DNA from: Escherichia coli
Lineage (GTDB): Bacteria; Pseudomonadota; Gammaproteobacteria; Enterobacterales; Enterobacteriaceae
Assembly (NCBI RefSeq): GCF_003334785.1
Contig: NZ_QOWV01000006.1
Length of the DNA: 64,000 nt
Direction: 5' to 3' (one strand)
In this document: positions 31,784-36,978 of the stretch, in pieces
How the letters are laid out: each line of letters begins with the position of its first letter
Numbering within the stretch: position 1 is the stretch's first letter
The notes under the pieces: model-generated
Seen by the model: only the letters and a program-made list of their open reading frames with translations
The model's database searches: none
What the model was told of the DNA's origin: nothing
Made by a program: the position numbers and the translations under genes

Positions 31784-34045
31784 TCAGGCAGGAATTTTGT
31801 CAATCTTAGGAATGCGTGACCACACGCGGTGTGCTGCCATCAGCGTTAGCAGTTCATCCATAAAACTACCGTCAGCGCTGTCAGCTTCCACAATCCCTTC
31901 TTCACCCTGGTCAGCGACCTTGATTGTTGCTTTAAACTTGCGCGCGTCACCCGCCAGCGCAATCGGTTTAAGGTGTTTGTAGGCTTCCATCAGGTAGTAG
32001 TTGGCATCGCCGTTGTCAGCGATATCCGCGATATTGCCGCAAGGGACAATGACCGCATCGACCGTCAGCGAAGGTGCACCGGCAAAGGTAGCGGCTATAG
32101 GCAACACCGTACCGTCATCCGCAGTCACTTCACCCATTCGGGAGTAGAGCAGTTTGGCATGAACGCCTTTGGCCTTCAGCGCCTTGAGAATGGCCAGAAG
32201 GTCTGCCGATCTCACTTCATCATTAAGTAAAATCGCTACCACGCGACCTTTCACATCACCGTCAGGAATGGCGTACAAACTTAAGGATGGATCCTTTTTC
32301 AGACCGTTGACGTCCGGAGGTGGGGTGATATTCAGCTGGTCGTCAGTCAGTTCGATACCGAGATTTTTCGCCACCGCCTGGGCCAGAGTGAGATCAATAT
32401 GCGCCAGCTGGTCAACAACGCGCTCACGAATATACGGACGAACGACTTTGCTTAACTCAAAACTGAAACCATCGACAATATGGCGCTGCTCAAATGGCGT
32501 CTGACTTAGCCAGAACAGACGCGGATGGGAATAATATTCGCCAAACGATGGGCTGCGCTCGCGAACTTTATTGCCTTCCACGCGCTCCTGGTATGATTCA
32601 AAACCGCCGCGTTTCGGCCCCGGCGGTGTTTCGCGCGGCCAGTTATCGTTAATCGAGTTCGGTTCGTAATTCGCCGGGTTAGTGTCGATCCCCATGCGAT
32701 GCATGCCGTCACGCTGGAAATTATGGTAAGGGCAGGTCGGACGGTTAATCGGAATCTCATGGAAATTCGGCCCACCAAGACGACTGATTTGTGTATCGGT
32801 ATAGGAGAACAAACGTCCCTGCAACAGCGGATCGTTGGTGAAGTCCAGTCCCGGCACGATATGCCCAGGATGGAAAGCCGCCTGTTCGTTTTCAGCAAAG
32901 AAGTTATCCGGGTTGCGATTGAGCACCATTTTGCCGACACGCTGAACGGGCACCAGTTCTTCCGGGATAAGTTTGGTTGGATCGAGAAGATCGAAGTCGA
33001 ACTTGAATTCATCTTCTTCAGGAATCAACTGGAAGCCCAGTTCGTATTCCGGAAAATCGCCTGCTTCAATGGCTTCCCACAACTCGCGGCGGTGGAAGTC
33101 CGGGTCACGTCCGGTGAGTTTTTGTGCTTCATCCCAAACGAGTGAGGCTTTACCTGCCAGTGGTTTCCAGTGGAAACGTACAAACGTTGCCTTCCCTTCG
33201 GCATTAATCAGGCGGAAGGTGTGAATACCGAAGCCTTCCATGGTGCGGTAACTGCGGGGGATGCCGCGATCCGACATCGCCCACATCACGTTGTGCAGAG
33301 TTTCAGGTTGCAGAGAAACATAATCCCAGAAAGTATCGTGGGCACTTTGCCCTTGTGGAATTGCCCAGTGCGGTTCTGGTTTTACCGCATGAACAAAATC
33401 GGGGAATTTATGCGCATCCTGGATAAAGAAGATTGGCGTGTTATTGCCAACGAGGTCAAAAATACCCTCTTCGGTATAGAACTTGGTGGCAAAGCCACGG
33501 ATATCACGCACGGTATCAGCAGAGCCAGCACCACCCTGAACGGTAGAGAAACGTACAAATACTGGGGTGATTTTGTTCGGATCTGAGAGGAAATCCGCTT
33601 TGGTAATATCGCTTAAGCTTTTATATGGCTGGAAATAACCGTGAGCGGCTGATCCGCGTGCATGAACAATACGTTCCGGAATGCGCTCATGGTCAAAGTG
33701 GGTGATTTTCTCGCGCAGAATAAAATCTTCCAGCAGCGTTGGACCACGGCTACCGGCACGCAGTGAGTTTTGATCGTCGGCGATGCGCACGCCCTGATTA
33801 GTGGTCAGCGCATAATTTTCACTGCCTTTGCGTACGTCTTCCAGAGAATTAAGTTTTTCGTTACGCGTATCAGGGGCTTTCAGGCTCCCTGGGGCGGTAG
33901 GTTGTGCACCTGGCGGTGTTGGTTCAGCCGCTGGACGATGAGAGCCGTCCTCAGGTGCCAGTGAGTCCATCCCCGGTTTCGCTTCGCTGGAATCGTGTAG
34001 TGGTGACTGGTGCTGATGTGGGTTCTTTTCGTTATGTTGCGACAT
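31784..34045 (-). CDS. katE: Catalase HPII (large-subunit monofunctional catalase)
   Basis: 753-aa ORF recognised as KatE. Confidence 0.97.
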
Positions 34046-34248
34046 TGAACTCGTCTCCTTAATTTATTACTGAAAGGGCCGCTGTTTTGGTCAAAAAACT
34101 CTCTAACTATAGACCACCAGCCAGATCCCGCTTCGGAGACTATTCTGGAAACGGTGTTATGAAATACACGCAAAGCGGGACGTACAGGGGCTAAATCGGC
34201 TAAACTACAGTTTTTCTGATTTTTAATATGCGTTTAGTGAAGCCAGTA

Positions 34249-34491
34249 ATGAAGAAACCGCTCCGCCAGCAAAACCGCCAGATTATTAGCTATGTCCCAC
34301 GCACGGAACCCGCGCCGCCAGAACATGCGATAAAGATGGATTCGTTTCGTGATGTCTGGATGCTGCGTGGCAAATATGTTGCGTTTGTACTGATGGGAGA
34401 GTCATTTCTGCGCTCACCGGCGTTTACTGTGCCTGAATCTGCCCAACGTTGGGCAAATCAGATCCGCCAGGAAGGGGAAGTGACTGAGTAA
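34249..34491 (+). CDS. cedA: Cell division modulator CedA
   Basis: 80-aa product from ATG 34249 (MKKPLRQQNRQIISYV) within ORF 34228..34491. Confidence 0.85.
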   Translation: MKKPLRQQNRQIISYVPRTEPAPPEHAIKMDSFRDVWMLRGKYVAFVLMGESFLRSPAFTVPESAQRWANQIRQEGEVTE

Positions 34492-34779
34492 GGATTACAT
34501 ACCTCCCGGTTTTGCCGGGAGTTACATGACCTGAAATTCTGTATTTCGTTGCTACATTCATTCAAACCACCTGTAACAAAAAGCTGCCTTTGACGATCTA
34601 TTGCTATAAATAAGTGATCTTTTTTCTTTAATTGTTTATTTATTTTAAAATGGTTAAGTTTTGCTAATCATGATGAGCTATTTTTGATAGTTCATCCTGT
34701 GGCGTCGCTCTTAAACTTATATTGTAAATGACTTAGATTTAAATGAGATAATAATTTTGTTAACAATATGAGGCGGGAG

Positions 34780-35583
34780 ATGTTTTCTACAAACTTAATA
34801 CAGAGTAATTATGGTGATTTAAATATTAAAAGCCTGGCTTTCGACTCTTTTAAAGAAAGGCTGCAGTCTACTATGACAGCACTCACTTTCTTTATATCAA
34901 CGGGTCAATGTGACTGCGATGAAATAGCAGAATCAAACTTTAATTATATGATTGCCTATATGTCTAACATTAACTATGATGCCTCAAAGCCAGGAGCGCC
35001 AGCACTTAGTTTTGATACATATCTGCAGGACAATGTTAAATATAGAGTAATAATTAATAATCTTTATGGTAGTGAAATTCGGATAAGAGGTATAAATAAA
35101 GATTTTATTGGAATGGATGTCACTTCTGTATTTCGCCCAGAAAAAATGACCAATTTGATCAGTATAAAAAACAGGTTGGTTATTCACTATTTAAGGACTA
35201 TATACTATGAACAAAATTATATACATCCTGTCGGGAGCATTTTTGCTGCGATTCAAAAAAATGAGAGTCTCCTAAAGTTTCCTTCGATAATATCAATGCT
35301 TAATATCAATCTTCTTTTTAATCCACTAAATCTTCCGGGAATGGGAAGTGGTGTGCTTGAAGATATTATGAGTATTCCAGATAGTTCACTTAGAAAACGT
35401 CTCGGGTATGAGGTTTTAAGCTTCTCGCTACAGGCACATTCATTGAGCCAGGAATGTATTGATAAGTTGGACATTTTTTTCGCTGACGATCTGTTTAAAT
35501 ATGAGTCAGTATGCATCGCCGCGATGGAACATTTAAAAAGTAAGGCAACGGCCCCTATACAAAACGGACCGTTGCCAGCATAA
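34780..35583 (+). CDS. ydjO: Uncharacterised protein YdjO (AT-rich orphan)
   Basis: 267-aa product from ATG 34780 (MFSTNLIQ); very AT-rich with AT-rich 288-bp upstream region. Confidence 0.75.
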   Translation: MFSTNLIQSNYGDLNIKSLAFDSFKERLQSTMTALTFFISTGQCDCDEIAESNFNYMIAYMSNINYDASKPGAPALSFDTYLQDNVKYRVIINNLYGSEIRIRGINKDFIGMDVTSVFRPEKMTNLISIKNRLVIHYLRTIYYEQNYIHPVGSIFAAIQKNESLLKFPSIISMLNINLLFNPLNLPGMGSGVLEDIMSIPDSSLRKRLGYEVLSFSLQAHSLSQECIDKLDIFFADDLFKYESVCIAAMEHLKSKATAPIQNGPLPA

Positions 35584-35586
35584 GAA

Positions 35587-36978
35587 TTAATGGTGTGCCA
35601 GTTCGGCGTCGTCTTCGCTATCCAGAATGGCTTTATCGGTTTGCTTCAGCCACTGGCTGGTCAGCGTGCCAGCTGTCATCGAGCCACTAACGTTTAACGC
35701 CGTACGGCCCATGTCGATAAGCGGTTCAACGGAGATTAACAGCGCCACCAGGGTTACTGGCAGGCCCATCGCAGGCAGTACAATCAGTGCGGCGAAAGTT
35801 GCACCACCACCGACACCGGCAACGCCTGCGGAACTAACGGTAACAATACCGACCAGCGTCGCAATCCACATCGGGTCCAGCGGGTTAATGCCAACCGTAG
35901 GCGCAACCATCACCGCCAGCATTGCCGGATACAAACCGGCGCAGCCGTTCTGACCAATGGTTGCACCGAAAGAGGCGGCGAAACTGGCGATGGATTCAGG
36001 AACGCCCAGACGACGCGTTTGTGCTTCCACATTCAGTGGGATAGACGCAGCACTGGAACGGCTGGTAAAGGCAAACGTCAGCACAGGCCATACCTTACGG
36101 AAGTACTTCAGCGGACTCACGCCATTAATGCCCAGCAGAATGCCATGCACTGCAAACATAATCAGCAGACCGAGGTAGGACGCGACAACGAAACTTCCCA
36201 GTTTGATGATGTCTTGCAAGTTAGAACCTGCAACCACTTTGGTCATTAGAGCCAGAACGCCGTAAGGGGTCAACTGCATGACCAGGCGAACCAGTTTCAT
36301 CACCCAGCTTTGTAGGGTATCGATAGCGGCTAAGACGCGTTCACCTTTCGGCGCATCATCCTTCAGCAGTTTCAATGCAGCTACGCCGAGGAATGCGGCA
36401 AAAATTACCACGCTGATAATTGACGTCGGATTGGCTCCGGTAAGATCGGCAAACGGGTTTTTCGGGATAAAGGACAAGACCAGCTGCGGAACGCTCAGAT
36501 CAGAGACTTTACCAACATAGTTACTTTCAATGGCGTTCAGACGTGCAGTTTCTGCACCACCCTGAACCAGACCTTCAGCCGTCAAACCAAACAGGTTGGT
36601 GACCAGCACACCGACCAGCGCCGCAATCAGCGTGGTAAACAAAAGCGTACCGATGGTCAGAAAACTGATTTTGCCTAACTGAGATGCGTTATGCAGACGG
36701 GCAACCGCGCTCAGAATAGAGGCGAAGACTAACGGCATAACGATCATTTGCAGCAGTTGAACATAGCCGTTACCAACGATGTTAAACCACTGTACAGAAT
36801 CTTTAAGTACCTGGCTGTCAGAACCATAAATGGTATGCAGGGCAAGGCCAAAAACCACACCCATCACCAGACCCACCAGCACTTTTTTCGCCAGACTCCA
36901 CTGTTTATGGCGGGTCTGAGCCAGCGCAAACAGCAGTACAACGAACACCACGATGTTCGCAATTAATGGAAAGTTCAT
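35587..36978 (-). CDS. tcyP: L-cystine / dicarboxylate:cation symporter family transporter
   Basis: 463-aa polytopic ORF recognised as YdjN (TcyP). Confidence 0.93.

Follow-up and report, generated by a model that had tools for sequence, protein, structure and literature searches.

ydjO of Escherichia coli lies on an AT-rich, H-NS-bound segment that probably replaced a shared terminator between cedA and tcyP

The gene ydjO is an already annotated y-gene of E. coli K-12, and our analysis makes it likely that it arrived on an AT-rich accessory insertion of about 1.1 kb that replaced an intrinsic terminator, that this DNA is silenced by H-NS, and that ydjO encodes a real but dispensable protein that has been lost repeatedly. 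A sequence-only reading had taken ydjO and its upstream region for xenogeneic DNA silenced by H-NS, and that interpretation is supported. We propose that in an ancestor within Escherichia a segment corresponding to approximately 34474-35590 took the place of a bidirectional terminator between cedA and tcyP, and that it would have brought a single protein-coding gene, ydjO, along with a sigma-70 promoter region of its own and, for each neighbour, a hairpin in place of the terminator. In K-12, H-NS would occupy the AT-rich promoter region and ydjO, nucleating on AT-rich, TpA-rich DNA and spreading from there, and the promoter island would stay transcriptionally unproductive. On this model ydjO would be a silenced, conditionally expressed accessory gene, which carriers would lose repeatedly by frameshifts in homopolymers, by insertion of IS1 and by deletion between repeats. 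The parts of this account that concern composition, insertion, taxonomic restriction, selection and decay come from the comparisons made here.

The DNA analysed (the window; 64,000 nucleotides) is E. coli K-12, with 100% identity to K-12-derived chromosomes, and carries in order chbG, katE (31784-34045, minus strand), cedA, ydjO, tcyP (ydjN) and ydjM. The features at the centre of the analysis are:

34228-34491, plus strand: cedA, the left flanking core gene
34492-34779, plus strand: AT-rich ydjO upstream region, GC 0.326, in overlap with the promoter island of 320 bp described in the literature and with the site bound by H-NS and RpoD in SELEX
34780-35583, plus strand: ydjO coding sequence, 267 amino acids, 30 kDa, pI 5.6, with a GAGG Shine-Dalgarno sequence at 34770-34773
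35587-36978, minus strand: tcyP (ydjN), the core gene flanking ydjO on the right and convergent with it

The coordinates previously assigned to ydjO (267 codons plus a stop) hold. Of the two neighbours that had been named, ydjN stands, whereas the gene immediately to the left is cedA and not katE.

Composition and H-NS binding

Both ydjO and the 288 bp between the cedA stop codon and the ydjO ATG had been described as markedly AT-rich relative to the neighbouring genes, with long A/T runs, of which the one quoted lies at 34620-34653. Windowed GC analysis bears this out, with values of 0.326 for the upstream region and 0.351 for ydjO compared with 0.515 in cedA, 0.521 in katE, 0.524 in tcyP and 0.502 for the window. 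Taken together, positions 34492-35583 have a GC content of 0.344 (z = -3.43), essentially the minimum for a stretch of 1092 bp in the window: the lowest value is 0.342, for the stretch starting at 34511, and just 0.08% of stretches of this length fall below the ydjO segment. Codon usage departs from that of the surroundings in the same way. ydjO has a GC3 of 0.315 where its neighbours have 0.53-0.57. Its codon-adaptation index, with the other long ORFs of the window as the training set, is 0.534, and all 19 of those ORFs score higher (mean 0.692, sd 0.061). Rare codons show a three-fold excess (12% versus approximately 4%), and TpA steps occur in the segment at twice the window frequency. GC content and codon usage are therefore both distinguishable from those of the neighbours.

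For the binding of H-NS and RNA polymerase we draw on the literature. The ydjO/cedA spacer is one of 78 K-12 "promoter islands", stretches of at least 300 bp with a very high density of transcription start points predicted by PlatProm, in which it appears as entry "1811053_320 ydjO/cedA" (Panyukov & Ozoline 2013, PMC3661553). By our own, approximate coordinate conversion this island maps to about 34563-34882. In that study the island is H-NS-bound in the ChIP data of Kahramanoglou and of Oshima, and is classed as foreign by two methods, the predictions of Nakamura and of Lawrence and Ochman (PMC3661553). Genomic SELEX (Shimada/Ishihama) likewise found that RpoD holoenzyme and H-NS both bind the ydjO/cedA spacer, and ATGACT-16-AATAAT was predicted to be a constitutive ydjO promoter (PMC3946193). 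The H-NS binding expected from composition had thus already been published in two kinds of experiment, and the foreign-looking composition and the E. coli specificity of ydjO are likewise already in print.

Our own scan of the upstream region returned the same promoter-like site as the SELEX study, and alignment of alleles brought out a second element:

34673-34696, plus strand: invariant 24-nt block ATGAGCTATTTTTGATAGTT(C/T)A (= ATGAGCTATTTTTGATAGTTCA), with the dyad AGCTAT-N5-ATAGTT
34728-34755, plus strand: sigma-70 promoter-like site ATGACT-16-AATAAT

Every E. coli allele examined, and E. albertii too, has the 24-nt block unchanged, and the sequence on either side of it has diverged. It is a new detail of this analysis and a candidate for a specific cis-regulatory element. 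A search of Rfam gave just a sub-threshold chance match.

We infer that silencing by H-NS is the operative state of ydjO in K-12. The main texts of the literature that we searched contained no report of ydjO derepression in an hns mutant. In a serum transcriptome ydjO was down-regulated along with ydjN and the CysB regulon (PMC4145685). Silencing may therefore be incomplete, or this signal may reflect convergent read-through, because the stop codons of ydjO and ydjN are separated by just 3 nt.

The segment resembles the H-NS-silenced islands and promoter islands of K-12 in its AT- and TpA-rich DNA, its atypical codons and its absence from relatives. It differs from them in being minimal (one gene in approximately 1.1 kb, with no integrase, tRNA or repeats) and in having replaced, as we read the locus, a bidirectional terminator while supplying hairpins to both convergent neighbours. 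It differs also in that simple consensus scans showed no excess of sigma-70-like sites (4 found, 5.0 expected, in a hexamer scan cruder than PlatProm) and no enrichment of the 10-bp high-affinity H-NS motif, of which the three matches at up to two mismatches were equalled in 30% of equal-sized windows.

The cedA-tcyP junction

We scanned one genome per species with CedA as the anchor, which gave 54 loci from about 50 species of Enterobacteriaceae, and placed KatE, CedA, YdjO and TcyP in each locus by tblastn. A convergent cedA-tcyP pair occurs in Citrobacter, Salmonella, Enterobacter, Kluyvera, Leclercia, Atlantibacter, Pseudocitrobacter and other genera. In about 45 non-Escherichia species the spacer between the two genes is mostly approximately 50-110 bp; a few species have longer spacers, the longest of these being 357 bp, and that of Siccibacter is 911 bp. 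No non-Escherichia locus of the scan contained a tblastn match to YdjO. At the five non-Escherichia junctions that we printed out, the spacer consists of an A-run, a GC-hairpin and a T-run, the arrangement of a shared bidirectional intrinsic terminator. Within Escherichia, E. whittamii and three further genomospecies (L010-L012) also have an empty site, with a terminator in a spacer of 51-53 bp.

Among 5,426 complete E. coli genomes, ydjO DNA is present in 4,301, of which 4,240 cover at least 80% of the query, and exactly the other 1,125 (21%) have a contiguous empty junction. The empty-site genomes that we inspected were those of Nissle 1917, 83972, O25:H4/ST131, BEN2908 and MS7163, all of which we take to be phylogroup B2 strains. 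That a short terminator spacer joins cedA to tcyP in about 45 species and in these 1,125 E. coli genomes argues that the ydjO segment is an insertion, as the description of this DNA as foreign implied.

Comparison of occupied junctions (K-12, the Escherichia sp. MOD1-EC7003 locus and E. albertii) with empty ones (B2 E. coli, E. whittamii and the three genomospecies) placed the boundaries within narrow zones, and two hairpins lie just inside them:

34474-34491, plus strand: boundary zone on the left side of the insertion or replacement, within the 3' end of cedA
34503-34521, plus strand: GC-rich hairpin CTCCCGGT-TTT-GCCGGGAG just past the cedA stop, dG -17.9 kcal/mol, z -3.35
35532-35576, minus strand: hairpin with an 11-bp stem (35544-35554 / 35566-35576), dG -22.4 kcal/mol, z -4.3
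35584-35592, no strand assigned: right boundary zone, in which the last tcyP sense codon is His at occupied and Arg at empty sites

The last five codons of cedA (34474-34488) track occupancy, the protein ending in QEGEVTE* where ydjO is present and in QENEVEE* at empty sites, and approximately 1,117 bp (34474-35590) substitute for about 64 bp of the empty allele. The ydjO segment thus appears to be an insertion that replaced the ancestral short terminator spacer. Such a replacement would deprive both neighbours of their shared terminator, and the two hairpins are placed where substitutes would be needed. The hairpin past cedA has a weak T tail and could be a substitute terminator-like element for that gene. 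The second is embedded in the last ydjO codons, its stem at 35544-35576 being followed on the minus strand by UUACUUUUUAAA (also given as UUACUUUUU), and is likely to be the intrinsic terminator of tcyP. The function of both as terminators is put forward from their structure and position; both are kept in a deletion remnant in MOD1-EC7003 (L007). If this is correct, the locus offers a clean, minimal case in which an insertion took over from a shared bidirectional terminator and had to give both neighbours new ones.

We considered whether ydjO might instead have been present in the enterobacterial ancestor and then have disappeared from most lineages. Its presence at the same site in both E. 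coli and E. albertii would fit such a history, but all sampled non-Escherichia species have the short spacer with a bidirectional terminator of homologous style and no YdjO match, a precise loss that restored a terminator and left different cedA end codons is implausible, and the composition of the segment is strongly atypical; we regard this possibility as effectively refuted. One strain, HH97, at first resembled an ancestral empty site, but it carries an odd C-rich filler of 110 bp between K-12-type junctions, and we treated it as an assembly artefact or an odd deletion and excluded it as an ancestral state.

Although an insertion accounts best for the junction, its source left little trace. 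We found no boundary repeats, integrase, transposon-type repeats or mobility gene at the segment, and searches of phage, plasmid, IMG/VR and PHROG sequences returned no donor. The term xenogeneic therefore rests on inference from the indel and the composition, which together point to a horizontal origin of the segment. A signature of mobility or of a donor is a supportive but not strictly defining feature of xenogeneic DNA.

The YdjO protein and its relatives

YdjO had been described as an orphan without a recognisable motif, and every search that we made agrees. YdjO had no match at permissive thresholds in Pfam-A, NCBIfam, PADLOC or the sequences of the PDB, and a single meaningless one in PHROGs (a PHROG of unknown function, E = 0.37). 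A word-indexed search of 5.8 billion clusters matched E. coli proteins alone, at 74% identity or more, and phmmer, run exhaustively over 1.84 billion representatives, returned E. coli YdjO fragments and one protein with 26% identity. The latter (P0034, E = 1.5e-36) is an artefact rather than a remote homologue, in that its contig reproduces the K-12 DNA at positions 34177-36218 with A exchanged for G and vice versa (588 A>G and 450 G>A changes relative to K-12). Across 15 billion proteins there was no relative outside Escherichia, and the cluster and representative searches turned up Escherichia/Shigella sequences alone. Nor was there a tblastn match in 50,697 phage genomes or a relative in IMG/VR, and three matches among 72,556 plasmids are mislabelled chromosomes.

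No transmembrane segment or signal peptide is predicted in YdjO. Its AlphaFold model, which is of moderate confidence (pLDDT 67, pTM 0.57), has an N-terminal alpha/beta domain (approximately residues 14-145) followed by a C-terminal half that is helical, and on this basis we propose that YdjO is a soluble 30-kDa protein with these two parts. The model gave no informative fold match. A Foldseek search of AFDB50 found YdjO itself, an E. albertii protein of 257 aa that is 32% identical to it and, weakly, three entries of the protein YhiS, while a viral fold search found nothing. Remote homology searches and structure prediction, which had been suggested as checks, therefore assign YdjO to no family, housekeeping or otherwise.

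YhiS is of interest for comparison, being an AT-rich orphan confined to E. coli/Shigella that is split by IS5 in K-12. The two genes are alike in GC content (0.32-0.35), taxonomic restriction, deep intraspecific alleles (62-92% identity) and the absence of a Pfam domain. Homology between them is unsupported, however: the best Foldseek match has E = 4.4e-3, with TM-scores of 0.28-0.35 over the three entries, BLASTP gives E = 0.17, and hhalign gives a probability of 0.6%. Two other proteins, YahL and YjfZ, have been grouped with YdjO as "conserved signature proteins" and used as qPCR markers for E. coli/Shigella (PMC11057252). Like these and other E. coli ORFans, YdjO is short, AT-rich, of unknown function and published as restricted to E. 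coli/Shigella. All three are E. coli-specific proteins of about 265 aa, but BLASTP shows no relationship that would make them paralogues.

The lack of relatives might be taken to mean that ydjO was born within Escherichia, de novo or by extensive divergence in situ, out of AT-rich, non-coding sequence where cedA meets tcyP, rather than imported. The absence of homologues from the protein, phage, plasmid and IMG/VR collections searched would be expected of such a gene, as would the lack of mobility signatures and of an informative fold match, and divergence is very fast, YdjO of E. coli and E. albertii sharing 39% of residues where CedA shares 92%. Against this, a 1.05-kb segment needs a source and the ancestral spacer offers just about 50 bp, the model has regular secondary structure in two domains predicted with moderate confidence, purifying selection is already clear across alleles (see below), and AT-rich ORFans without matches are commonly ascribed to phage or mobile-element gene pools that have not been sampled, as Daubin and Ochman reportedly did in 2004. 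We consider birth in place unlikely and favour import of the segment.

Alleles, selection and decay

The type strain of E. albertii carries a ydjO-like ORF at the same site, with the 39% amino acid identity extending over 114 residues of an ORF inside which the contig ends, and its cedA C-terminus is of the occupied type. A search with this partial ORF for the full E. albertii protein returned just a 79-aa fragment. The presence of this copy beside an occupied-type cedA indicates that the insertion, or the allele class, predates or crosses the boundary between E. coli and E. albertii.

Ten pairwise comparisons among intact ydjO alleles gave dN/dS values of 0.15-0.28, which indicates that ydjO encodes a real, translated and constrained protein. 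Intact alleles are under moderate purifying selection, with constraint much weaker than in tcyP. Consistent with translation, a Shine-Dalgarno sequence and start codon are conserved, as GAGG-N6-ATG in the aligned E. coli alleles and, at the corresponding place in E. albertii, as AAGGA-N6-ATG.

Synonymous divergence in ydjO exceeds that of its flanks, and one allele stands out. Between K-12 and this allele (P0006, at locus L005) dS is 0.79 over codons 1-170 and 0.05-0.15 in the flanks, while the last 97 codons of the allele differ from the common P0001-type allele by one residue, with dS of 0.07-0.09. Locus and geometry are the same, and the promoter-distal half of the upstream region is nearly identical. 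This allele is a recombinational mosaic that involves a much older or a foreign Escherichia lineage.

Such allelic depth raises the possibility that ydjO is phage or mobile-element cargo with a function in conflict, for example defence against phage by a single gene, toxicity or action as a secreted effector, that is silent until triggered and whose presence/absence and deep alleles reflect balancing or diversifying selection. The deep lineages and their N-/C-terminal mosaicism would accord with this, as would the presence/absence polymorphism, the H-NS-bound AT-rich context, which is typical of such cargo, and a weak Foldseek match of the model to a "putative type III effector" (E = 0.13). 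Searches of PADLOC, of PHROG and of viral folds were nevertheless all negative, the insert has no partner gene, and ydjO is often pseudogenised at no obvious cost. Moreover, dN/dS is about 0.2 in diverged and conserved parts alike, and the values of 0.19-0.22 in the hypervariable N-terminal two-thirds of YdjO do not support positive selection. We therefore judge conflict cargo to be improbable, and purifying selection on an accessory gene to be the better description of the alleles.

A related reading combines several of these features. In it ydjO would be an old trans-specific presence/absence polymorphism encoding a lineage-invented protein, a regulator acting on the dyad element at 34673-34696 would counteract H-NS, and the product would have a niche-specific secreted or conflict function, for instance as a protein exported by the type III system ETT2 or LEE. 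The distribution of these secretion systems is similar to that of ydjO. The occurrence of ydjO in E. albertii and in 79% of E. coli, and not in the B2 strains inspected, together with the Ser/Thr/Asn/Ile-rich N-terminus of YdjO, would fit a secreted or conflict function; we nonetheless give this combined scheme very little weight beside the silenced accessory insertion described above.

Loss of ydjO function among carriers can be traced to particular sites in the segment:

34591-34599, plus strand: left copy of the 9-bp direct repeat TGACGATCT, bounding an 893-bp deletion
35255-35261, plus strand: A7 homopolymer, a frameshift hotspot; A8 gives products ending ...AIQKK* (P0011, OkiPb01700) and A6 gives ...AIQKMRVS* (P0012)
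35474-35480, plus strand: T7 homopolymer, a frameshift hotspot; T6 in O157:H7 NE1127, annotated by PGAP as "frameshifted"
35484-35492, plus strand: right copy of the 9-bp direct repeat TGACGATCT, bounding the same 893-bp deletion

In MOD1-EC7003 deletion of the 893 bp between the two repeat copies (from 34591 to 35484) has removed the promoter and 235 codons. Length changes in the A7 and T7 tracts explain large clusters of shortened YdjO products, such as P0011 with its 2,273 member sequences, and frameshifted genes occur in the complete genomes of O157:H7 NE1127 and OkiPb01700. IS1 lies at different positions within ydjO in two unrelated strains. Of the eight annotated ydjO loci that we inspected, four are broken: IS1 accounts for two of these and homopolymer frameshifts for the other two. 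With about one-fifth of E. coli genomes lacking ydjO and carriers repeatedly losing its function, the gene appears to be dispensable.

This record of decay might suggest that the ORF no longer functions in present-day E. coli, being a decaying remnant on a segment that matters just as spacer, terminator and H-NS-binding DNA. Half of the inspected loci being broken, the abundance of shortened products, the absence of the segment from 21% of genomes and the retention in MOD1-EC7003 of just the two putative terminator hairpins could all be read in this way. A pseudogene would not, however, be expected to show dN/dS of 0.15-0.28 in alleles that include very divergent ones, to keep a full-length frame of 267 aa at dS of up to 0.8 and across recombinant alleles, or to conserve its Shine-Dalgarno sequence and start codon, and we think it quite improbable that ydjO is such a remnant. 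A real but dispensable gene, under purifying selection and yet repeatedly inactivated, agrees better with both sets of observations, and makes ydjO a tractable case in which to ask what purpose H-NS-silenced orphans serve.

The same distribution bears on the published use of ydjO as a marker. In contrast to its description as such, ydjO is not in all strains, 1,125 of the 5,426 complete genomes lacking it and many carriers having a broken copy, and it is not strictly specific to E. coli/Shigella, as a divergent copy exists in E. albertii. As a universal qPCR marker for E. coli/Shigella it would miss 21% of complete genomes, and major lineages of extraintestinal pathogenic E. coli (ExPEC) are among them, for example ST131, Nissle and 83972. 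These comparative details are of modest practical use, and the basic finding adds little to published knowledge. Variation in ydjO has also been seen in the laboratory, where a study of the LTEE recorded, anecdotally, ydjO SNPs in two isolates (PMC10997342).

Sequence upstream and at the ends of ydjO

Upstream of ydjO lies a 24-nt block (window 34673-34696) that contains the dyad AGCTAT-N5-ATAGTT. This block is unchanged between the E. coli alleles and the copy of the gene found at the same cedA-tcyP site in E. albertii, which is 39% identical at the amino acid level, while the neighbouring upstream sequence has diverged. The block is a candidate regulator-binding site. We note that the 3′ end of cedA (34462-34482; ATCCGCCAGGAAGGGGAAGTG) and an internal segment of ydjO (35330-35350) are identical at 17 of 21 positions; by a rough estimate, a match of this kind in a 1.3-kb self-comparison is compatible with chance.

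At the other end of the gene, the stop codons of ydjO and the convergent tcyP (ydjN) are separated by just 3 nt (window 35584-35589), and ydjO lacks a plus-strand terminator. Transcripts of ydjO, if produced, would run antisense into tcyP. In a serum transcriptome, the ydjO signal follows ydjN and the CysB regulon (PMC4145685).

Disruption and replacement of ydjO in other strains

Two independent IS1 insertions, at different positions, interrupt ydjO:

L072 (locus from strain C21) 1141-1908: IS1 after CDS nt 552, corresponding to ~35331 in the window
L073 (locus from strain 2 HS-C) 1240-2004: IS1 after CDS nt 651, corresponding to ~35430 in the window

In E. coli HH97 (NZ_CP116409.1; locus L002, 5053-5165), ydjO is replaced by ~110 bp of C-rich low-complexity filler (ccctccccacccccccacccgtccccccc...), flanked on both left and right by K-12-type junctions. 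The annotation of this genome lists the adjoining katE as a partial gene and includes an IS110 fragment there. The filler is probably an artefact of assembly or polishing, or else an odd deletion.

Other AT-rich genes and an apparent homologue of YdjO

Besides ydjO, the window contains another strongly AT-rich block (42500-45500; GC as low as 0.37 in 1092-bp stretches), which corresponds to the arpB pseudogene/yniD/ydiY region of MG1655. Its long ORF is of the same compositional class as ydjO. Like ydjO, yhiS is an AT-rich orphan (GC 0.32-0.35), confined to E. coli and Shigella.

42919-44088, minus strand: long ORF of the second AT-rich block; GC3 0.365, local codon-adaptation index 0.545
L069 (MG1655 locus) 2292-4714, genome 3,651,291-3,653,713: yhiS, split by IS5 in K-12

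Alleles of yhiS are as little as 62% identical, and the product has no Pfam domain. Foldseek weakly links the predicted structure of YdjO to YhiS, a link to which sequence and profile comparisons give no support.

The protein P0034 appeared to be a homologue of YdjO (26% identity, E = 1.5e-36) and was rejected because it is an ORF of L061, a contig from a public assembly (Logan SRR33321306) that consists of K-12 sequence (window 34177-36218) with A and G swapped throughout (588 A>G and 450 G>A substitutions relative to K-12). Contig and protein are thus a data artefact, and P0034, being present in protein databases, could misdirect homology searches.
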